Positions 5,203-19,080 of a DNA stretch of 64,000 bases are shown here, in pieces; within the stretch, counting starts at the first letter, position 1, and every line of letters begins with the position of its first letter. Below the pieces are notes generated by a model. The model worked only from the letters and a program-made list of their open reading frames with translations. It did no database searches and was not told where the DNA came from. The stretch is from Bacteroidia bacterium (GTDB lineage: Bacteria > Bacteroidota > Bacteroidia > 2-12-FULL-35-15). The translations under genes were made by a program, and so were the position numbers. The stretch covers positions 119,527 to 183,526 of the forward strand of contig JAVHPE010000177.1 of NCBI GenBank assembly GCA_036170475.1. Reading direction: 5' to 3'.

Positions 5203-6969
5203 ATGAAAAAATCATTATTTATTTTTCTTATATTAACAGTGTTTTACACTTCCTGCTCTAATCAGGGCGCTGGTAATTCGGGAACAAAAGTAGCCAAAGG
5301 CGACAAAGTTTATGGCGGAACATTGCGGGTTAATGCCACAGAGCAGATTCAAACGCTTTATCCCGCCTCCATTATAGATGTTGTTTCAAATCATGTTGCG
5401 GACCAAATTTATGAAGGACTGGTAAAATTTAATTCCAAGGACTTATCTATTATGCCCAGTTTGGCTGAAAAATGGGACATTGACGCTGCCGGAACCACCT
5501 ATACATTTCATTTGAAGAAAGGTGTGATGTTTCAGGATAATGAATGTTTTTCAGGAGGGAAAGGAAGGGAAGTAAAAGCGACTGACGTAAAATACTCATT
5601 TGATTTGTTATGTGTTGACAGCAAAGACAATGTAAACTTTCCCGCTACTTTTAAAGACCGGATTGTAGGAGCCAATAAGTTTTTTGAAACCAGTAAAGAT
5701 AAGCCGAATGGTTCAATTGAAGGAATTAGCGTGGTTGATGATTATACTATAAAAATTACATTAACAGCACCCAGTACTTCATTTTTATTTGTTTTGGCTT
5801 CTCCTGCAACAAGTGTGATTCCTAAGGAAGCTGTTGAAAAATATGGCAAAAATACAAAAGTAGGTACAGGTGCTTTTGTTTTTGTTGAGAATGCGGGAGC
5901 AGATAAAATAATTTTGAAGCGAAATAATAACTATCATGGTGTTGACTCATTGGGAAACCAATTGCCTTTTCTTGACAGCGTCATTGTGAGCTTTTTGCCA
6001 ACAAAAAAAGAAGAATTGGAGACTTTCAAAAATGGTAATTTGGCTGAAGTTATTGAACTTCCATCTGAATCCATTAAAGAAATGATAGAAAAAGAAATTA
6101 CAGACTTCCAAAATAAACAACCCAAATATATATTGGAGCGTTTACCGGAAATGGCTAGTCAATACTATTTGTTTAATCTTACCAAAGAACCGTTTACGAA
6201 TGTAAAAGTGCGTAAAGCCTTTTCCTATGCTATTGACAGGAATAAAATTATTGAAGAAGTATTAAAAGGTGAAGCTTATGGTCCTGGGATAAATGGTATC
6301 TCTCCGCCAACATTTAAAGGATATGACATTACCAAAATTAAAGGATATGATTTTGACCCTAAGGAAGCTAAAAAATTATTAGCGGAAGCGGGATTCCCAA
6401 ATGGTAAAGGATTTCCTAAAGTAAAGGTGGAGTTGAATAGTAGTGGGTTGAAAAATGCTGATGTGGTTGTAGAGGTACAAAAACAATTGAAAGAAGTGTT
6501 AAACATTGATATTGATTTTGAAATAGTAGCATCACTAAAACAAAAACTGGATGATCAAAAATATGGAAAGGCTGAAATTTTTCGTGCTTCATGGATTGCC
6601 GATTTTCCAAGTCCTGAAAACTTTTTATGGATGTTTTATGGCGGTAGTGTACCAGCTGACAACACTCAACCATCATGGCCCAATACTTCGCGCTATAAAA
6701 ATGCGGAGTTTGATAAATTGATTCAGGCTGGAAAAACTTCAAAAACTATTGAAGAAAGTTACGCTAATTTTATGAAAGCAGAGCAATTATTAATGGATGA
6801 AGCTCCGGCTATTATGCTTTGGTATGGGGAAAATTATCGTTTGGTAAAATCTAATGTACATAGCCTTTTCTCGAATCCTATGCGTTACAGAGATTATTCA
6901 CTGGTATATTTGAAAGATGTGAAACCAGCAGCCTCTGCTGAAACAGAAAAAAAAGATGATCATAAATAA
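5203..6969 (+). CDS. ABC transporter substrate-binding lipoprotein, family 5 (OppA/DppA-like)
   Basis: Lipobox YTSC; IYEGLV..PSLAEKW...YTFHLKKGV.F; VGTGAF; VRKAFSYAIDR; YDFDPKEAKKLLAEAG. Confidence 0.9.
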   Translation: MKKSLFIFLILTVFYTSCSNQGAGNSGTKVAKGDKVYGGTLRVNATEQIQTLYPASIIDVVSNHVADQIYEGLVKFNSKDLSIMPSLAEKWDIDAAGTTYTFHLKKGVMFQDNECFSGGKGREVKATDVKYSFDLLCVDSKDNVNFPATFKDRIVGANKFFETSKDKPNGSIEGISVVDDYTIKITLTAPSTSFLFVLASPATSVIPKEAVEKYGKNTKVGTGAFVFVENAGADKIILKRNNNYHGVDSLGNQLPFLDSVIVSFLPTKKEELETFKNGNLAEVIELPSESIKEMIEKEITDFQNKQPKYILERLPEMASQYYLFNLTKEPFTNVKVRKAFSYAIDRNKIIEEVLKGEAYGPGINGISPPTFKGYDITKIKGYDFDPKEAKKLLAEAGFPNGKGFPKVKVELNSSGLKNADVVVEVQKQLKEVLNIDIDFEIVASLKQKLDDQKYGKAEIFRASWIADFPSPENFLWMFYGGSVPADNTQPSWPNTSRYKNAEFDKLIQAGKTSKTIEESYANFMKAEQLLMDEAPAIMLWYGENYRLVKSNVHSLFSNPMRYRDYSLVYLKDVKPAASAETEKKDDHK

Positions 6970-11647: not shown

Positions 11648-12655
11648 TCATTTCATTTCTTTATTCAAAATAGGAAGTAATATTAATGAAATAGCCCCCA
11701 GTAAAAGTATGAGTATGAATTGTGATGTCCAGATAAGCCAGGAAAAAGCAAAAGCAAAAGTGAATGAAATTTTATATACAGATGTTAATGTTTCAGTAAC
11801 CAGCGCCTGGTAGGCACCTGTTCCTCCGGGAACAAAAATAATACCCAGACTGCCAAACAGCATTATTGCCAAAGCAGCACCAATTCCTAATTGTGATGTT
11901 TCTTTAAAACAGAAAAATCCTACATACAATAATGCTGTATATAGAAACCATATAAGGGCAGTATGCAAAACAAACAGGTAGGGACGTTTGATATTTTTTA
12001 CAGATTTTAATCCTTCCCAGAAACCAAGCACTATGTCTTTCATTTTTTTAATAAACACTCCCTTGCTTTTTTTACGGAGGATGAAAATCAAAACGATGAT
12101 TGCTAGTATAACTACTGCAAAACCCAATACAAATAAATTGTTATGCTTTAGTGCAGATAATTTAGATGAAAGAGGACTAACAATTTTTTCATTTGTCATG
12201 CCCCACAACCGTTCAAACTGAAAAAAAAGTGTTGCAAAAAAAACAAGAATTAAACAGAGCAAATCAATAGCGCGTTCAGCTATTACTGTTCCAAAAGCTT
12301 CAGTAAAAGGTATTTTTTCATACTTTGTAAGTATTCCGCAACGTGATACTTCACCTAAACGAGGCAATGCAAAATTGGCTAAATAACCTACCATTACTGC
12401 AAAAAAAGTGTTGGATAATTTAGGGTTAAAGCCAAGGGGCTGAATTAATATTTTCCAGCGCATGGCACGAACCAAATGACTTAAAAAACTTAAAAACATA
12501 GATAAAACAATCCAAAAATAATTGGCTTGAGCAAAAGCTTCTTTGATGCTCGCTTTGTCATTCTCTGTAAGATTGCGAACAGCCAGCCAGATCAATAAAA
12601 TTCCTATGCCTAAAAAAAATAGAAATTTTAAAATTGTAAAAATTTTATTTTTCAA
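11648..12655 (-). CDS. Lysylphosphatidylglycerol-synthase TM region / flippase-like (UPF0104) membrane protein
   Basis: RAMRWKIL, GYLANFALPRLGEVSR, GTVIAER..D and PGGTGAY motifs. Confidence 0.85.
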   Translation of the reverse strand: MKNKIFTILKFLFFLGIGILLIWLAVRNLTENDKASIKEAFAQANYFWIVLSMFLSFLSHLVRAMRWKILIQPLGFNPKLSNTFFAVMVGYLANFALPRLGEVSRCGILTKYEKIPFTEAFGTVIAERAIDLLCLILVFFATLFFQFERLWGMTNEKIVSPLSSKLSALKHNNLFVLGFAVVILAIIVLIFILRKKSKGVFIKKMKDIVLGFWEGLKSVKNIKRPYLFVLHTALIWFLYTALLYVGFFCFKETSQLGIGAALAIMLFGSLGIIFVPGGTGAYQALVTETLTSVYKISFTFAFAFSWLIWTSQFILILLLGAISLILLPILNKEMK

Positions 12656-12657
12656 AA

Positions 12658-13008
12658 TTAGCGTAGTTTATTGGTTTTACTATCAGGAAAAATAACAGTT
12701 GGCTTGTATTTTTTAGCCAATTCGAAATCCATTAGTGCGTAAGATACAATAATTATTTCGTGACCTGCTTTTACTTTTAATGATGCTGGCCCATTCAAAC
12801 AAATAACACCTGAATCTTTTTCACCTTTAATCACATAAGTGGTAAAACGTTCTCCATTGTTATAATTAAAAATATCCACCTTCTCGTTTTCAATAAGGTT
12901 GGCAGCATCCATTAAATTTTCATCAATGGTCACACTACCAATATAATTCAGGTCGGCCTGAGTTACAATTACGCGATGTATCTTTGATTTTAAAACTTCT
13001 ATTTGCAT
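12658..13008 (-). CDS. panD: Aspartate 1-decarboxylase
   Basis: [22 protein letters not shown] (G-S self-cleavage site), [15 protein letters not shown]. Confidence 0.96.
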
Positions 13009-13096
13009 GATAGCTACAAAACTAAAGAAATAAATTTAATTGATGGTACATTTTTTGATAATGGCTTTAGGTATCATTTGCAAACAGTATTATGAT

Positions 13097-13104
13097 TATC
13101 TTTG
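13097..13104 (+). promoter_or_regulatory. Bacteroidota -7 promoter element for the leader-ORF/metal-uptake operon
   Basis: TATCTTTG matches TAnnTTTG. ATG at 13108 is 3 nt downstream. TTTG at 13077-13080 (16-bp spacer, shorter than usual). Confidence 0.6.
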
Positions 13105-13107
13105 TTT

Positions 13108-13422
13108 ATGTATAAATTGAAACCTATACTTGCTATTTTCACTTTGCTTGTTTTTCTTTTTCCGCTTATGGAAAAAGGGCTTCACGATTTTTCTCATATT
13201 AGTGATAAACATTGCATTTCGGCAGATAAACATTTTCACCCCTCAGAGCATCATTGCGAAGTATGTGATTTCACAAACGATTTTAATGGATTGCCTTCTT
13301 TTAATCAGCCCGATTTACTTTTGAGTGAACAAGGTAATTTAGATTTCTTTTCCACAAAAAATAATATACTTCTTCAGAAAAAACATTTCCATTCTCTTCG
13401 TGCTCCACCTTCCTTGGTATAG
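13108..13422 (+). CDS. His-rich, CxxC, C-terminal RAPP leader protein (DUF2946/CruR/CutF-like putative arrest peptide)
   Basis: Hydrophobic N-terminus, H-rich tract with CEVC, ends HFHSLRAPPSLV*. Lies directly upstream of a metal-uptake operon. Confidence 0.8.
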   Translation: MYKLKPILAIFTLLVFLFPLMEKGLHDFSHISDKHCISADKHFHPSEHHCEVCDFTNDFNGLPSFNQPDLLLSEQGNLDFFSTKNNILLQKKHFHSLRAPPSLV

Positions 13423-13499
13423 TTTTCTTCCGTTAAATATACGGTTGTTTACTCATTTCAATTTTGTGTAAATACTATTTACCATAAAATAATTAAGCA

Positions 13500-14645
13500 A
13501 TGTATTTAAAAAACAGTTTACTGTTTTTCATTCTGTTTATCAGCATGAAAGTTAATTCCCAAACTGAAAGCACAAAGACCGATTCGATTCTGCTTTTGCA
13601 AATTCAGAATGAAATGCAACAACAACAAACACCTCCACCACAACAACGGATTGGAGCTTCTGCTAATCCTGACATTAGCGTGATAGGCGATTTTCAAGGA
13701 TTGTACCGTAGTTATGGATCTCATAATTTTGACGCACTATTAAATGAAGCGGAACTTTCCGTTCAGTCAGTAGTTGATCCTTATGCCCGTGCTGATTTCT
13801 TTTATTCCATTGGAGAAGACCGTATTACAGGAAAATTCTCCGGAGCAATTGAAGAAGGTTATTTAACTACCACATCTTTGCCTGCTCATCTCCAATTAAA
13901 AGCAGGACGATTCAAACAAGCGATGGGTAGGGTAAATCCAACACATGCCCATGCACTTCCCTTTATTGACTTGCCTGATGCTTACGTGAATTTTTTCGGT
14001 GAAGAAGGATTAAAAGGTGATGGGGTTTCATTAGTTTGGTTGTTGCCAAACCACAGCTTTTTTCAGGAGTCGACTGTAGAAGCAACAAGTGTAGCGGAAA
14101 GTCCAAGCTTTGAACGAAGCAATAAAAATAACTATCTGTATCTCGCTCACCTGAAAAATTTCTGGGATTTAACAGCAAATGCTACAATGGAGCTTGGACT
14201 GTCTGCAATGACCGGAGAAAATCTAATGAAAAGAAAAACCAATATTGGTGCTCTTGATCTTACATACAAATGGAAGCCAATCAGATACAACACTTACAAA
14301 TCGGTTACTTTTCAAAATGAATTGTATTATAGTCAGGCTATGCTCGATAGTTCAAAAGTAAATGCACTTGGGTTTTATTCCATGTTAAATGTACAGGTAG
14401 CACAACGCTGGTTTCTTGCAGGAAGGTTCGATTATTCCAACAACCCGTATTCAGTAAAATTTGTACAGAAATCTGGCTCAATGACTCTTGGTTGGTATGC
14501 AACTGAATTTCAAAAAATAGAATTGGAAGGGAAATATACAACCATGAATCAAGGTCTTATTGAAAACAATTATGAGAAAAATTTTGTGATGGCTTATTTG
14601 CGCTGGATTTTCGTCATTGGGACGCATGGTGCACACACTTACTAA
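13500..14645 (+). CDS. Outer-membrane beta-barrel (porin-like) of a metal-uptake operon
   Basis: Signal peptide, NPDISVIGD, VDPY.RAD, EEGY, GRVNPTHAHALPF, amphipathic strands, C-terminal IGTHGAHTY. Confidence 0.75.
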   Translation: MYLKNSLLFFILFISMKVNSQTESTKTDSILLLQIQNEMQQQQTPPPQQRIGASANPDISVIGDFQGLYRSYGSHNFDALLNEAELSVQSVVDPYARADFFYSIGEDRITGKFSGAIEEGYLTTTSLPAHLQLKAGRFKQAMGRVNPTHAHALPFIDLPDAYVNFFGEEGLKGDGVSLVWLLPNHSFFQESTVEATSVAESPSFERSNKNNYLYLAHLKNFWDLTANATMELGLSAMTGENLMKRKTNIGALDLTYKWKPIRYNTYKSVTFQNELYYSQAMLDSSKVNALGFYSMLNVQVAQRWFLAGRFDYSNNPYSVKFVQKSGSMTLGWYATEFQKIELEGKYTTMNQGLIENNYEKNFVMAYLRWIFVIGTHGAHTY

Positions 14646-14718
14646 AATAATTATGAGTTATGAGTTAAAAGTTAAGAGTTTTGAATTGATAAAAAAAACC
14701 GTAAAAAATAAAAACAAA

Positions 14719-15624
14719 ATGAAAACAAAAATCATTCTTATACTAATCGCTTCCGCTGTTACGATAAATAGTTCTTTTGCATCCACAATTCATGTTGTTA
14801 CTACAACACAAGATACACGAAGCATTGCCGAATTAATCGGAGGAAACAAAATAGATGTATTCGCTATCGCGACAGGCTATCAAAACCCCCATTTTGTTGA
14901 CCCTAAACCAAGTTACATCATTAAACTTTCGAATGCTGATTTGTATGTAACACTTGGTCTGGATTTGGAAGCCGGTTGGTCGCCATCATTACTTAGCAGT
15001 TCAAAAAATAAAAAAATTCAGAAAGGCAGTGATGGATATGTAGATGCATCTGTTGGAGTAACATTAATGCAAGTGCCTTCTTCTATTAACCGCGCCGAAG
15101 GAGACATACATGCATTTGGAAACCCACATTACTGGCTCGATCCAACAAATGGAAAAACAATTGCACGCAATATTTGCAACGGACTTGAAAAAATTTCTCC
15201 GGAAAATAAAGACTTTTTTGAAGCAAATCTTAAAACATTCGATTCACAAATTGATTTAAAATTAAAAGCGTGGACCACTGAAATGGCAGGCTTTAAAGGC
15301 TCAAAAGTTATCGCCTATCATAACGAATGGTGTTATTTCGAAAACCGTTTTGGTTTAAAGATTGTAGATTTTATGGAACCCAAACCGGGCATACCACCCA
15401 CCCCTTCTCAATTAGTGAAAATCATTAAAGAAGTAAAAGAAAATAGCATAAAAGTAATTATTACTTCGCCATACTTTACTGCTTCTTCATCAGATGTTGT
15501 TTCAAAACAAACAGGAGCAAAAACCCTGATACTTGCTACTTCTGTTGGAGCATTCGATTCAATAAAAAATTATTACGATTTGTTTGATTACAATATTAAA
15601 TTATTAGTTGGCGCTTTGAAATAG
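14719..15624 (+). CDS. Zn/Mn ABC transporter substrate-binding protein (ZnuA/TroA, cluster A-I)
   Basis: QNPHF, GLDLE.GW, GNPHYWLDP, AYHNEW and EPKPGIPPTP motifs. ATG 14719 preferred over the ORF-track start 14617. Confidence 0.88.
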   Translation: MKTKIILILIASAVTINSSFASTIHVVTTTQDTRSIAELIGGNKIDVFAIATGYQNPHFVDPKPSYIIKLSNADLYVTLGLDLEAGWSPSLLSSSKNKKIQKGSDGYVDASVGVTLMQVPSSINRAEGDIHAFGNPHYWLDPTNGKTIARNICNGLEKISPENKDFFEANLKTFDSQIDLKLKAWTTEMAGFKGSKVIAYHNEWCYFENRFGLKIVDFMEPKPGIPPTPSQLVKIIKEVKENSIKVIITSPYFTASSSDVVSKQTGAKTLILATSVGAFDSIKNYYDLFDYNIKLLVGALK

Positions 15625-15722
15625 TTTCAAAATAGTATAGTTCAAATCCTCCCACGCAATTTGCATTAAGATAGGGATCAAGTAAAAATAGAATAAAATT
15701 ATAAACCTAAAACCTCATTACC

Positions 15723-16571
15723 ATGTTCGAAATGTTTCAATTAGATTTTATGATGTTAGCATTTATAGTCAGCATCATTATTGGTATAGTCCTTTCCTAC
15801 CTTGGTGTACATGTGGTAGGTAGAGGAATTGTTTTTGTTGACCTTGCACTTGGTCAGATTGCTTCACTAGGAGTTGCCTATTCCGATTATGTAGGCTATG
15901 GAAAAACAATAATTCCAATTGTATTTGCTTTAGCCGGTGCACTGTTGATGTCACTCATTAATATTCGCGATAAGCGATTAAAATTAGAAGCCATCATCGG
16001 AATAATTTATGCGGTTGCCTCTGCTGTAACAGTGATGTTTATTTCCAAGACGCCTCATGGTGATTCAGATATTCAGGAAGTATTGTTCGGAAATATTCTT
16101 TCGGTAGATTGGGCACAAATAAAAATAATTGGAATTATTTTCGGAGGAATTGCTTTGTTTCATCTCATTTTTCACAAAAAATTTTTTCTACTTACCGAAT
16201 GTTTTGAAAATGAAAATCCAAAAGTAGCAGCAACTGTTTTTAAGAAAAAAGGAGAATTTAGTTTTTGGAATTTTATGTTTTATCTATCAATTGGACTTGC
16301 TATTGTTTTTGCAGTACGTGTTAGTGGGGTAATTCCTGTGTTTTCATTTCTTATCATTCCGGCAGTAGCGGCAATTATGGTATCGAAAAACAAATTGGGT
16401 TTAATAATTACAGCTGTAATCATTAGTTTGCTCGGCGCTTTTTTCGGATTAAATGTTTCCTATCATTACGATTTCCCGGCAGGATCATCCTTAGTAGCGG
16501 TGTTGGGAGGAATTTTTCTGATGATCTCACTATTTTATCTTTTCAAAACAAGAATAAAAAAGGAGAATTAA
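15723..16571 (+). CDS. Metal ABC transporter permease (ABC-3, ZnuB/MntB-like)
   Basis: LGVHVV.RGIVFVDLALGQ, EAIIG, LFGNIL, FSFLIIPA, DFPAG. Confidence 0.88.
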   Translation: MFEMFQLDFMMLAFIVSIIIGIVLSYLGVHVVGRGIVFVDLALGQIASLGVAYSDYVGYGKTIIPIVFALAGALLMSLINIRDKRLKLEAIIGIIYAVASAVTVMFISKTPHGDSDIQEVLFGNILSVDWAQIKIIGIIFGGIALFHLIFHKKFFLLTECFENENPKVAATVFKKKGEFSFWNFMFYLSIGLAIVFAVRVSGVIPVFSFLIIPAVAAIMVSKNKLGLIITAVIISLLGAFFGLNVSYHYDFPAGSSLVAVLGGIFLMISLFYLFKTRIKKEN

Positions 16572-16929
16572 ATTGAAAAAATCAGGCATATTTTATTTCT
16601 ATCTTTTTACCTATCGTTAATCATCTCTATTAACTCCGATTCCATCATCCAACTCAGTATGGAATATGTTACGTTCTAAACAGGGCTATACTAATTACCC
16701 GGTTAAAAAACTGCAAAAGATAAATTATACACACTTACTGCTCGATTTACTCCTGAGAAGTATGATCAAAATTCGCCAATACCTTTACTATAAAGGATTG
16801 TGTCGGTTTTTGTTTTGTAAATTTTTTGGGGGATAACTTTTCTTCAAATCTGCTTTTGAGATAAGGTCATTACTTTATAGGAAAACATTTTAATATTTAC
16901 TACATTTGAACTGACCTAATTTTCATACA

Positions 16930-19080
16930 ATGAAAAAAAATCTACTTTTATTTTTGTTTATTTATCAAATAAGCAATTTGTTCTCACAGATAAATGATTG
17001 TACAACAGCTACTCAATTTTGTGCCAATACAAATAATACTTATCCTGCATCTCAAAATACGACCGAGCCTGTAGGTCCTAATTTTGGTTGTTTAGGAAGT
17101 TATCCAAACCCTGCCTGGCTTTACTTTAATGTTGTAACGAGTGGAAACCTTATCATAAATATGTCTAATTCTGCAAACCTTGATATTGATTTTATTTGCT
17201 GGGGACCTTATACATCATCTGCTGCAGGCTGCGCATCAGGGTTAACCGGTACCGCTGTTTCATGCAGCTATTCATCATCGGCAAACGAAACATGCACCGT
17301 TCCGAATGCTCAGGCAGGAGAATTTTATATTCTGTTGATTACAAATTATTCTAATCAACCAACCAATATTACCTTCTCAATAGATTCTTCGAGTACGGCT
17401 GTCACGTCCTGTGATGGAATATCTTGTACACCTGACGCATTTTGTACTACTCCATTATGTATTGATGGGACACTTCAGCTTATTGCAGATGAAAATTTTG
17501 CACTTGGCACCTATGCTTGGAGCGGGCCTAATGGTTTTTCTTCGACTCAACAAAACCCGACTATTAATAATGTTTCGACAAACGCTTCCGGCTATTATTA
17601 TGTTACTTATAACAAAGATTCCACTTGTTTAAATGAAATGGACAGTGTTTTAGTTAGTGTAGATACCTGCGGTATGCTGATAGGAAGAGTATTTGCGGAT
17701 GCAAATAATAACTGCTCTTATGATAGTTCAGAAAATTATGTTGCCAATGCCCAGATAAAACTTTCTCAAAATAATATTTTTGTGGCATGGGCATGGACGG
17801 ATGCTTTTGGTTATTACTTTTTTAACGTACCTAATGGAAGTTATACTATAGAATTAGTCTCTACTCCCGATTATACAATAACTTGTTCTAATAGTTTGGC
17901 TCATAATACGACTGTTTCATCGCCGTCTATCACAACAGAAAATTTTGCCGTAACTTGTAATACATCTGATATCGCAGCAACCGGTATTGGTTTGAATGGA
18001 CCTATTGGATTTTTTCCCGGGAATACAAAAGTGCTTTTTCCCTATGTTGGTATTTATAACCCAGCCTGCCATCAAACTATTGTTCCGGGAAAAGTTGTAG
18101 TTGTTTTAGATACGTTAACGCAATATTTCGGTCCCTATAGTTCATACCCGGCACCGGATACAGTTATCGTAACAGTTTCAGGAGATACACTGATTTGGAA
18201 TGTAGCCGATATTAGCAATATTGGGAATTTTGGTTATTTTAACTATCCCTTTGAAGTTTCTACAAACACATCCGCTACCATTGGCGATACCGTTTGTATT
18301 ACGCTCATGGTGTTTCCTATTCTGGGTGATGCTGATACCAGCAACAATATTTTTAAACGTTGTTTTATCGTCGGTAATTCATACGACCCAAATTCAAAAG
18401 AAGTATTTCCCAAAGGGAATAGTCAATTCGGATATATTCCCGCTTCAACACCAAAATTGGAATACACGATTAATTTTCAGAATATGGGCACTGTAGCTGC
18501 CCAAAACATAATTGTTTTAGACACACTTGATGCCGACTTAGATATTGCATCTTTAAAAATTATATCAAGCAGCCATCAACAAACCACTACTTTTTTAGAA
18601 GGAAATGTTCTAAAATTTAACTTTAGTAACATTATGCTGCCTGATACAGCCGAAGACGAAGCTCATAGCCATGGTTATGTAAAATATTCCATAGCACCAA
18701 TTCAGAATTTACCTCCTGGAACACAGTTAACAAACACCGCGTATATTTATTTTGATTATAACGCAGCCATTGTAACAAATACGGCGCTCAACACAATTGA
18801 GTTCCCTTCTGGTATTATGAATTATTCCGCTTATCATTTAGGAGTATTCCCTAATCCGACAAACAGCACTATTGATATTAATTTCGAAGGCAAACAAAGT
18901 GAAAATATTTACTTAAAAATTATGGATATAAAAGGGCAGATTGTTTATCAGGAAAAAGAAGGAAACTTCTCCGGTAAATATTCAAAAACGATTGATTTAA
19001 ATAATTTTTCAAAAGGAATTTACCTGCTTCAAATCATTACCGATACAGAAACAATTCAGAAAAAAGTGGTCAAGGATTAA
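16930..19080 (+). CDS. T9SS type-A substrate, Cys-rich secreted surface protein
   Basis: Signal peptide ending SQ, SprB-like N-domain (CLGSYPNPAW), NSYDPN.K...YTINFQN...NTAYIYFD domain, C-terminal VFPNP...SKGIYLL...KKVVK tail. TACATTTG at 16901. Confidence 0.88.
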   Translation: MKKNLLLFLFIYQISNLFSQINDCTTATQFCANTNNTYPASQNTTEPVGPNFGCLGSYPNPAWLYFNVVTSGNLIINMSNSANLDIDFICWGPYTSSAAGCASGLTGTAVSCSYSSSANETCTVPNAQAGEFYILLITNYSNQPTNITFSIDSSSTAVTSCDGISCTPDAFCTTPLCIDGTLQLIADENFALGTYAWSGPNGFSSTQQNPTINNVSTNASGYYYVTYNKDSTCLNEMDSVLVSVDTCGMLIGRVFADANNNCSYDSSENYVANAQIKLSQNNIFVAWAWTDAFGYYFFNVPNGSYTIELVSTPDYTITCSNSLAHNTTVSSPSITTENFAVTCNTSDIAATGIGLNGPIGFFPGNTKVLFPYVGIYNPACHQTIVPGKVVVVLDTLTQYFGPYSSYPAPDTVIVTVSGDTLIWNVADISNIGNFGYFNYPFEVSTNTSATIGDTVCITLMVFPILGDADTSNNIFKRCFIVGNSYDPNSKEVFPKGNSQFGYIPASTPKLEYTINFQNMGTVAAQNIIVLDTLDADLDIASLKIISSSHQQTTTFLEGNVLKFNFSNIMLPDTAEDEAHSHGYVKYSIAPIQNLPPGTQLTNTAYIYFDYNAAIVTNTALNTIEFPSGIMNYSAYHLGVFPNPTNSTIDINFEGKQSENIYLKIMDIKGQIVYQEKEGNFSGKYSKTIDLNNFSKGIYLLQIITDTETIQKKVVKD

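Follow-up and report, generated by a model that had tools for sequence, protein, structure and literature searches.

A conserved short open reading frame ending in a RAPP motif heads a porin-ZnuA-permease operon in Bacteroidota and is a candidate metal-sensing arrest leader

The closest described relatives of the system considered here are two copper-responsive leader peptides of Proteobacteria, CruR (Bp2923) of Bordetella pertussis and CutF of Rhodobacter capsulatus. Proteins of the DUF2946 type are characterized by an export signal, a CxxC motif and a RAPP sequence three residues from the C-terminus, and are encoded first in copper-related operons (Roy et al., 2022, PMC9426467); in the same account, the distance from CxxC to RAPP is 45 residues, varying by one or two residues over more than 2,000 proteins. 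Arrest of CruR at RAPP was reported in vitro with the PURE system, both Pro codons then occupying the P and A sites, and RAPP and RGPP are described as the strongest RAPP-like arrest motifs, which stall bacterial ribosomes and belong to a type of motif that is under-represented in bacterial proteomes, including those of Bacteroidota (PMC12992588). CutF is described as a nascent chain that is exported, that carries a Cys motif and, at its C-terminus, a stall motif made of prolines, and that acts only in cis on the next gene (PMC9973294; 10.1101/2025.02.05.636593). Here we analyzed a 64,000-nucleotide stretch of DNA from a Bacteroidia bacterium (GCA_036170475.1, contig JAVHPE010000177.1, positions 119,527 to 183,526; hereafter ‘the window’), in which an open reading frame (ORF) of 104 codons precedes genes for an outer-membrane porin, a ZnuA-type binding protein and an ABC-3 permease. 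We propose, with a probability of about 0.6, that this ORF is a cis-acting, metal-sensing arrest leader of the CruR/CutF type, which would gate the porin-ZnuA-permease operon.

The leader ORF occupies 13108-13422 on the plus strand, as do all the features described below, with an ATG at 13108 and a TAG stop at 13420-13422. Behind a Lys-containing N-terminus, codons 6-21 (13123-13170) encode a hydrophobic segment with the character of an export signal or membrane anchor, and residues 4-29 are predicted by AlphaFold2, from a 92-sequence alignment, to form a confident helix (predicted local distance difference test score, pLDDT, 88-96). A 29-residue His/Cys cluster follows (codons 26-54; 13183-13269), the proposed metal-binding module, comprising H26, H30, H35-C36, H42, H44, H48-H49-C50-x-x-C53 and D54; its CxxC motif, C50-E-V-C53, is encoded at 13255-13266. 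From there a spacer of 44 residues (codons 54-97; 13267-13398) leads to the RAPP arrest motif at residues 98-101 (codons CGT GCT CCA CCT; 13399-13410), and a tail of three codons, S-L-V, with the stop codon (13411-13422) closes the frame. An earlier reading of this DNA from its sequence alone (the sequence-only reading) had described the 104-residue ORF and its His/Cys residues, which are present in the window as quoted, and a gap of 77 nucleotides to the next gene, which lies at 13423-13499. Its ‘terminal LRAPP’ is also present but is only near-terminal, S-L-V and the stop codon coming after RAPP.

The resemblance to CruR covers several features at once. Both are small first genes of a metal-uptake operon, with an N-terminal segment that is an export signal in CruR and of export type in the window leader, both place CxxC about 45 residues before RAPP (44 in the window leader) and end in a three-residue tail, and both are followed by a sizeable intergenic spacer, with a C-rich stretch near the stall site. 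The window leader thus carries the sequence marks of DUF2946 proteins, i.e., CxxC, RAPP near the C-terminus at a spacing of 44, and a position as first gene with a spacer before the next one. The importer-suited logic, in which metal frees the stall and turns the operon off, would also be alike, as we propose below. In contrast to CruR, which has 145 residues, comes from Proteobacteria and senses copper, the window leader has 104 residues, comes from Bacteroidota, is suspected to respond to zinc and is predicted to be translated from a leaderless mRNA. Its sensor also contains far more His, with 4-5 conserved His besides 3 Cys, and where CruR has RAPP, the Bacteroidota leader family uses RGPP as often as RAPP. 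The CruR operon encodes a TonB receptor and a PepSY protein, whereas the window operon encodes a porin, a ZnuA-type binding protein and an ABC-3 permease. CutF differs in carrying CxxxC and PPP where the window leader has CxxC and RAPP. In CutF as described, copper strengthens the stall, which melts a stem-loop over the Shine-Dalgarno sequence and turns on a detoxifying oxidase; the window leader has an importer downstream, for which the opposite polarity is expected, in a phylum without Shine-Dalgarno-led initiation. The members of a third group, ApdA, ApdP and SecM-type peptides, are reported to be small proteins that likewise carry the four-residue arrest motif close to the C-terminus, together with a localization signal, and that are encoded upstream of the gene they regulate (PMC10987492, PMC12992588). 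These classical RAPP peptides monitor Sec or YidC and precede sec or yidC genes, whereas the window leader precedes metal transport genes and has, unlike them, a cluster of metal ligands set at a constant number of residues from the motif. No Sec or YidC gene was found behind the leader in 38 family contexts scanned, and the downstream gene in the window is the porin.

The leader is part of a large family, in which conservation, as judged from aligned homologues, is far beyond chance. A profile search of 1.84 billion representative sequences gave 460 clusters at 50% identity with E ≤ 1e-3, and 153 with E ≤ 1e-10; nearly all members are 100-110 residues long. All named database records for the family are hypothetical proteins of Bacteroidota, with zero precomputed Pfam domains. 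Motifs, spacings and tails were counted on the best 150 of the 460 clusters, and residue frequencies on a 92-member alignment. The arrest motif is RAPP in 73 of the 150 clusters and RGPP in 70, with neither in 7. Among the 143 motif-bearing clusters, CxxC precedes the motif by 44 residues in 109, by 45 in 22, by 43 in 7 and by 46 in 4, one being without CxxC, and the spacing is 43-46 in 87 of the 92 aligned members. The motif is followed by two residues in 47 clusters and by three in 76, i.e., by two or three in 123. Five residues are invariant in the alignment (H26, C36, H42, C50 and P100), and the remaining cluster positions are kept at high frequency (H30 0.93, H35 0.85, H44 0.80, H48 0.92, C53 0.99, D54 0.89), as are those of the arrest motif (R98 0.98, P100 1.0, P101 0.99). 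In the N-terminal segment L13, F16, L17 and P19 are kept at 0.84-0.89. The ten closest homologues of the window leader (52-100% identity) retain all His/Cys positions and L-R-A-P-P. Across an even sample of 401 Bacteroidota genomes, the leader profile found matches in 63 genomes and 35 of 179 genera, with a patchy distribution across families (e.g., 25 of 28 genomes in one and 0 of 87 in another); in genus g4 of family f3, 14 of 15 genomes gave a match.

Between the ligand cluster and the arrest motif the pattern is reversed. Residues 57-94 (38 residues) have a mean top-residue frequency of 0.21 and an entropy of 3.59 bits, compared to 0.54 and 2.05 bits in the cluster, so that the alignments describe a spacer that is fixed in length and near-random in sequence. 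A nascent-chain ruler is expected to look like this, and a folded protein is not. This bears on the alternative that the 104-residue product is itself a working protein, a membrane-anchored periplasmic metal-binding protein or chaperone, in which R[AG]PP would be a structural or sorting feature. An anchor with a conserved His/Cys cluster, co-transcription with transport proteins and occurrence as a single copy beside the only ZnuA-type gene of its genome would suit such a protein. Against it stand the near-random stretch of fixed length, which is unlike folded-protein evolution, and the nature of the only other conserved element, a ribosome-arresting motif two or three residues from the stop codon in 123 of the top 150 clusters. 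In addition, AlphaFold2 gave no fold beyond the N-terminal helix, and the CruR and CutF proteins are reported, in the accounts of those systems, not to be detectable in vivo. We consider a working protein very unlikely.

The leader is linked to the operon well beyond the window. A pattern scan of species genomes gave 12 loci, among them five (L003, L004, L006, L007 and L008) that share the order leader-porin-ZnuA-ZnuB while their flanking genes differ. When the porin profile was used as the query, 25 porin loci were found in the 401 Bacteroidota genomes, distributed over 20 of the 179 genera; a ZnuA homologue lies downstream on the same strand at 23 of them, and an upstream ORF ending in R[AG]PP (19 loci) or HAPP (1 locus) is present at 20. 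In 16 of these 20 upstream ORFs, CxxC lies 43-46 residues before the motif. The linkage of leader and porin holds down to 24-30% porin identity, where the leader is otherwise unrecognizable. The sequence-only reading had staked its case on conservation of CxxC and R[AG]PP upstream of orthologous operons, and at 20 of 25 porin loci this is what the survey returned. The leader-porin-ZnuA architecture is thus old and widespread, and not obligatory. They also bear on the most deflationary explanation, that the ORF arose by chance, with coincidental motifs, in an operon controlled only by a conventional repressor of the Fur/Zur family. The genome does encode one FUR-family protein, and 5 of the 25 porin loci are without a leader; set against this are the 460 homologous clusters with invariant His, Cys and Pro positions and the retention of the leader across porin operons of 24-100% identity, which leave a chance ORF with next to no probability.

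Kinship with DUF2946 was assessed with the Pfam profile PF11162. It is the commonest Pfam match of the leader family, found in 20 of the 92 members at E ≤ 1 with a best E value of 5.2e-4, and it scores above its cutoff in 4 of the 401 Bacteroidota genomes. Two intermediate relatives, L053 and L054, pass PF11162 with 24.6 and 25.0 bits and are scored at 22.2 and 37.3 bits by the profile of the leader family; L053 (genome G161) lies directly upstream of a porin orthologue. We read the leader family, from these profile scores, as a divergent Bacteroidota branch of a DUF2946/CutF-like superfamily. The window leader itself is not a DUF2946 member by Pfam's threshold. The profile comparison called for by the sequence-only reading was thus divided, with the window leader below the cutoff and the two intermediates above it. 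Likewise, its broader view of the ORF as a Bacteroidota counterpart of CruR/CutF leaders is borne out by the spacing, the tail, the hydrophobic N-terminal segment, the gene order and the linkage at 20 of 25 porin loci, and not by the PF11162 score of the window leader. Scanned against NCBIfam, the window leader gave no family at E ≤ 1. Separately, 13 of the 92 leader members matched NF047702, the ‘LIC10965 family’, weakly (best E value 0.0043), which raises the possibility that another phylum has a related family of leaders.

The three genes behind the leader were annotated by profile search and structure prediction, which agreed with the earlier description of an outer-membrane barrel, a cluster A-I binding protein and an ABC-3 permease. 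The first (13500-14645) encodes a porin of 381 residues from an unnamed family, with no match in Pfam or NCBIfam and with 4,957 homologues, all named ‘hypothetical’. Modelled by AlphaFold2 from a 42-sequence alignment, it has a signal peptide and a 16-stranded β-barrel (pLDDT 75.7; predicted template modelling score, pTM, 0.67), and the top Foldseek match is OprP (2o4v, E 1.3e-7, TMq 0.55), followed by OmpT, Omp32 and OprO, with TMq 0.50-0.57 over these top matches. Its C-terminus reads H-G-A-H-x-Y, the last residue being Tyr. Five His residues are invariant in the 42-sequence alignment (H130, H149, H151, H376 and H379), and H149 and H151 are placed by the model in a long loop between strands 5 and 6, the usual position of a constriction loop. 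The protein may be a metal-selective porin. The second gene (ATG at 14719; 14719-15624) encodes a ZnuA-type cluster A-I substrate-binding protein (PF01297, E 9.6e-53), for which the NCBIfam equivalog models, ZnuA and AztC, all scored below cutoff. The third (15723-16571) encodes a ZnuB/AztB-like ABC-3 permease (PF00950, E 1.6e-37; AztB, E 4.7e-30, below cutoff). The genome has one ZnuA-type gene and one ABC-3 gene. A Zur-repressed znuABC/ZnuD system is alike in having a zinc-type cluster A-I binding protein, an ABC-3 permease and an outer-membrane entry route, and in its expected induction by zinc scarcity. It differs in that znuABC and ZnuD are under a Fur-family repressor, whereas nascent-peptide control is proposed for the window operon, and in that the outer-membrane partner in the window is a 16-stranded porin encoded in the operon, which has no ATPase gene. 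A 716-residue ORF at 16930-19080, beginning 358 nucleotides past the permease gene, is apparently outside the operon.

The binding protein provides the most direct indication of the metal. Among solved structures, its nearest relatives are ZnuA of Synechocystis (2ov1, 1pq4) and YcdH of B. subtilis, and His58, His137 and His201 align with the motif His residues of both, whereas MntA and PsaA, which bind manganese, have Glu in place of His201 and Asp in place of Thr274. His58, His137, His201 and Thr274 are identical in all six of the orthologues compared. We take the three His positions to be the metal ligands of cluster A-I proteins, among which a three-His site marks zinc specificity. The sensor cluster of the leader family is itself made of four or five His and three Cys, with Asp/Glu and no conserved Met among the 92 members. 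One leader elsewhere in the family (L038, G040:C31), which ends in RAPP, lies 301 nucleotides upstream of zigA, the gene for a zinc metallochaperone GTPase (605.5 bits against an equivalog cutoff of 600), and five full-length TonB receptors found behind leaders gave as best model a heme/hemoglobin receptor in four cases and ZnuD in one, all below cutoff. Taken together, the three-His binding protein, the zigA case, the similarity to ZnuD and the His-rich, Met-free sensor make zinc the probable signal of the leader, in so far as it can be read from these sequences.

A different metal, i.e., copper as for CruR and CutF, or nickel, cobalt or iron, or metals that differ among members of the family, seems possible but rather unlikely. 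In its favour, CxxC is described as the copper-sensing motif of CruR and CutF, His-rich CutF-like clusters are reported to be linked to the nickel/cobalt genes HupE/UreJ (mBio 2023, PMC9973294), and the TonB receptors behind leaders score best on heme/hemoglobin models and also match the copper-receptor model. Arguing for zinc instead are the three-His site in the binding protein of the operon, where manganese and iron binders have a His2-Glu-Asp site, and the zigA gene, above its equivalog cutoff, behind a relative of the leader. Further, inspection of the genes downstream of 43 leader copies showed no neighbouring copper-homeostasis gene, and copper-related upstream ORFs (uORFs) are reported to be lacking in Bacteroidota in the EMBO J 2025 survey (PMC12992588). 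Parts of the Riemerella ZntR paper (PMC11960050) provided no usable link to TonB receptors. The sole FUR-family gene of the genome from which the window comes is at G000:C29:14912-15271 (L061; 96.6 bits). With a single FUR-family gene, a single ZnuA and a single ABC-3 gene, it is possible that zinc uptake in this organism is set by the leader in place of a Zur protein.

How such a leader would work can be laid out from its anatomy. The hydrophobic N-terminal segment would send the nascent chain to the membrane, and when the ribosome reaches R98-A-P-P101, peptide-bond formation would stall. If Pro100 then occupies the P site, the peptidyl-transferase centre is separated from C53 by 47 residues and from H26 by 74, so the His/Cys module (H26 to D54), about 47 residues away at its near end, would be outside the tunnel, at or beyond the translocon. 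If metal, most likely zinc, is available there, the module would bind it and compact, and the resulting pull on the chain would free the arrest, with termination three codons on; the operon would then be shut off. If metal is scarce, the stall would stay, and the three downstream genes, from porin to permease, would be expressed. A useful comparison is the ADR1a-SecM fusion, in which zinc-dependent folding of a 29-residue Cys2His2 finger is reported to free the arrest only at tethers of 24-26 residues, with no effect by about 30 residues, the length that spans the tunnel (PMC4571824). On that scale, the 47-residue tether would be too long for folding inside the tunnel and would roughly span the tunnel together with a docked translocon, which favours sensing outside the cytoplasm by an exported module, as proposed for CutF. 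For the direction of the response, the CruR polarity is favoured because it is the only one that gives negative feedback on an importer. TnaC of the E. coli tna operon offers a precedent for the output, a ligand-dependent stall at the end of a leader that blocks Rho, with the downstream genes transcribed; in TnaC, tryptophan induces the stall inside the tunnel, whereas in the window leader the ligand is proposed to release it from outside.

The output we favour is the CruR route, in which the C-rich, G-poor 3′ end of the leader would be covered by the stalled ribosome and closed to Rho, and in which, after release, Rho would terminate transcription within or just past the 77-nucleotide spacer. 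A C-rich, G-poor patch that is a candidate Rho loading site lies at 13340-13427 (C 20, G 6, C/G 3.33), and the 78-nucleotide segments ending at 13417-13427 have a C/G ratio of 3.33, at the 99th percentile of all 78-nucleotide segments in the window. A ribosome stalled at RAPP would partly cover this patch, if it acts as a Rho utilization site at all. The skew recurs in the family: in the 43 other leader copies, the median C/G percentile is 88-93 for segments ending from 60 nucleotides before to 60 nucleotides after the stop codon, and about half of them are at or above the 90th percentile. Both the 3′ end of the ORF and the spacer had been described beforehand as pyrimidine-rich and G-poor; a strong excess of C over G is present in the last ~80 nucleotides of the ORF, and the skew of the spacer is only mild.

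Several observations weigh against the reading of the ORF as a metal-sensing leader that shuts off the operon through Rho. Concerning its ancestry, the window leader scores 14.0 bits against PF11162 (E 0.088, residues 38-101 on profile positions 52-117) and misses the cutoff of 23.7, and a PF11162 search of its whole genome gave no match at E ≤ 1. Because metal enhances stalling in CutF, homology does not settle which way the response would run, and the CxxC motif, in the published accounts of CruR and CutF, is a copper motif. The TonB receptors behind other leaders could carry a substrate other than zinc. The His/Cys module shows no compact metal-binding fold in AlphaFold2 (coil, pLDDT 61-77), a modelling result that says nothing either way about a metal-dependent fold. 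Concerning the operon, no leader ORF lies upstream at five of the 25 porin loci (L084, L086, L087, L094 and L101); at L094 an upstream ORF has a proline pair near the C-terminus and neither CxxC nor R[AG]PP. The operon can thus exist without the leader. The importer, moreover, is not fully accounted for, as its cognate ATPase was not found in the operon or at the ZnuC cutoff in the genome. No ABC ATPase gene lies behind the permease in the window or in L004, L006, L007 and L008, the four matching loci with sufficient flanking sequence; the ZnuC model NF007090 has 27 matches in the genome, all below its 306-bit cutoff (best 77.2 bits), and none of the five best loci has a neighbouring ZnuA- or ABC-3-type gene, two of the five looking, by sequence, MlaF- and LptB-like. 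Concerning the RNA, the intergenic spacer is 77 nucleotides long, compared to 162 in B. pertussis, its own C/G ratio is 1.57, and the excess of C over G upstream may come partly from the coding of Ser, Leu, Pro and Phe. Finally, hairpins are enriched behind the leaders, an observation no less compatible with a CutF-like or attenuator output than with Rho.

This last point leads to the one alternative that keeps the sensor and changes the output: the stalled or released ribosome would decide the state of a stem-loop in the spacer, without Rho, and the stem-loop would either occlude the translation start of the porin or act as a weak intrinsic terminator. The spacer (13423-13499) can form small stem-loops at 13430-13444 and ~13461-13491, and an alternative pairing of 13464-13475 with 13502-13513 extends over the start of the porin gene. 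For 13396-13530 the minimum free energy is -22.3 kcal/mol (z -3.1), a value matched by 0 of 200 shuffles. A perfect-stem hairpin of -4 kcal/mol or lower occurs within 60 nucleotides past the stop codon in 27 of 44 leader copies, compared to 15% of shuffles, and several of the hairpins in the family are followed by U-rich tails; the comparison is a count of hairpins, since the seven porin-type loci were too small a set, or too far apart in sequence, to show covariation. A search of 12600-17000 against Rfam (E ≤ 1) gave no match, which leaves the spacer unexplained by any known riboswitch or leader RNA. Such an output would parallel CutF, whose stem-loop is described as shielding the downstream ribosome-binding site (10.1101/2025.02.05.636593), and initiation in Bacteroidota, without Shine-Dalgarno pairing, is described as sensitive to structure (PMC6847099). 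Against it, the hairpins in the family vary in position from 0 to 43 nucleotides past the stop codon and are not conserved in sequence, and the stems in the window are short and AU-rich (4 base pairs for 13430-13444). The first hairpin in the window starts 7 nucleotides past the stop codon, which by the expected geometry is about 10 nucleotides further than a ribosome holding Pro100 in its P site would reach; the stalled ribosome should therefore not melt it. A hairpin output is, on balance, unlikely, and we retain the Rho route as the favoured one.

The start of the leader transcript can be predicted from a promoter box. Position 13097, given by the sequence-only reading as the start of its region, is not the start of the ORF but the first base of a Bacteroidota sigma-A -7 box, TATCTTTG (13097-13104), which ends 3 nucleotides before the leader ATG at 13108. 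This box, TAnnTTTG, is described as spanning -12 to -5, with 4-5 nucleotides to the transcription start (PMC9723704, PMC6847099). Since it abuts the leader start codon, the leader mRNA is predicted to be leaderless or near-leaderless, with a putative transcription start that leaves a 5′ untranslated region of 0-4 nucleotides. Consistent with this, 20 of the 44 leader copies have an exact TAnnTTTG whose last base lies 3-8 nucleotides upstream of the start codon, where ~0.3 would be expected (background 0.00069 per position), with gaps of 3 nucleotides in two copies, 4 in five, 5 in three, 6 in seven, 7 in two and 8 in one; at four porin-type loci the box is matched imperfectly and the start codon is GTG or TTG. 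Untranslated regions of this length are reported for only 3.7-5.5% of transcripts in two mapped Bacteroidota (PMC9723704). A sigma-70 promoter and terminator scan, which gave 14 promoter-like sites against 15.7 expected and no plus-strand terminator, was uninformative; the sigma-70 model does not cover Bacteroidota promoters. The public sequencing runs listed for this DNA are four DNA runs of a single study, which may be the source of the assembly, and no RNA run.

Leader, ruler, metal and promoter can be combined into a more ambitious proposal, which we put forward tentatively and rate somewhat below even chances: that the leader is the first zinc-sensing nascent-chain switch, in which a 29-residue module would fold on periplasmic zinc as it leaves the translocon and, through a ruler of ~47 residues, pull on an R[AG]PP arrest on a leaderless mRNA, and which in many Bacteroidota would replace Zur for the whole zinc entry route. 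That route would consist of a His-lined porin or a ZnuD-like TonB receptor, a ZnuA/ZnuB-type importer and, in one lineage, ZigA.

The contexts of the leader in other genomes were compared using 44 leader copies in loci L001-L042 (L013 being the window); the downstream gene is readable for 43, L012 ending at a contig edge. The porin-ZnuA-ZnuB context is in the minority, with 7 of the 43 copies. Thirty-eight downstream genes were scanned against Pfam, the five porin-type loci already found by tblastn being set aside. Thirty of the 38 encode TonB-dependent receptors with Plug and CarboxypepD_reg domains; the others are two porins (the window's own and that of L026, whose leader has RGPP), one CobW-family GTPase (the ZigA of L038), one ABC ATPase, one DUF4625 protein and three genes without a match. 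The second genes behind the TonB receptors encode DUF4625 in 4 of 20 cases and are otherwise unrelated (prolyl oligopeptidase, aminotransferase, DsbD-like and others), and they pointed to no additional metal, DUF4625 thus recurring as first gene in L030 (1 of 38) and as second gene among L062-L081 (4 of 20). The window's own genome has one copy of the leader family, beside its sole ZnuA-type gene, and has only the porin version, whereas G363 of the same genus (L014/L081) has a leader before a TonB receptor and no porin orthologue at E ≤ 1e-20; the TonB-receptor and porin contexts seem interchangeable between close relatives. Two loci contain two leader-like ORFs each, at 2459-2821 and 5335-5647 in L009 and at 6001-6312 and 9932-10279 in L011. 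One leader precedes a TonB receptor and the other a lipoprotein of ~190-220 residues and no known family behind the receptor, an arrangement that suggests separate control of consecutive genes.

Parts of this picture are already in print. In an earlier survey, Bacteroidota are the second largest holder of CutF-like proteins, with 19% of a list of 5,334, and some of these were proposed to sense metals other than copper (mBio 2023, PMC9973294); RAPP/RGPP uORFs are reported to precede TonB-dependent receptors across Gram-negative phyla (EMBO J 2025, PMC12992588). The main texts of these two papers do not mention zinc, ZnuA, ABC transporters or porins, which their supplementary neighbour lists may include. 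A literature search found no published account of an arrest peptide or uORF coupled with ZnuA or zinc uptake, a result limited in that the supplements of the surveys may list such neighbours. The novelty claimed by the sequence-only reading is accordingly narrowed: the Bacteroidota CutF-like proteins and the TonB-linked uORFs had been published, while the porin-ZnuA-ZnuB context and the link to zinc were not found in print. The class of mechanism is known from CruR, CutF and the RAPP/RGPP peptides, and the window presents a real and strongly conserved case of it, not a new principle.

Metal-sensing arrest peptides have been known for only a few years, and their description rests on two copper examples from Proteobacteria, CruR and CutF. 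The leader family would bring nascent-chain metal sensing into Bacteroidota in a concrete, testable form. If the proposal is true, the mechanism extends to a new type of operon, with a zinc-type importer and a dedicated porin, and to ZigA, and probably to a new metal; zinc would be the second metal to be read by a nascent chain, and the leader would offer an alternative to Zur in a phylum where zinc regulation is poorly known. If the leaders are indeed on leaderless mRNAs, the first ribosome would be directly behind RNA polymerase. The family is also a natural data set, in which only the ligand cluster, the length of the ruler and the four-residue motif are kept, with RAPP and RGPP about equal, and it is useful for asking how force or folding outside the tunnel frees an arrest. 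For the large unnamed family of porins, the linkage described here is a first functional hint.

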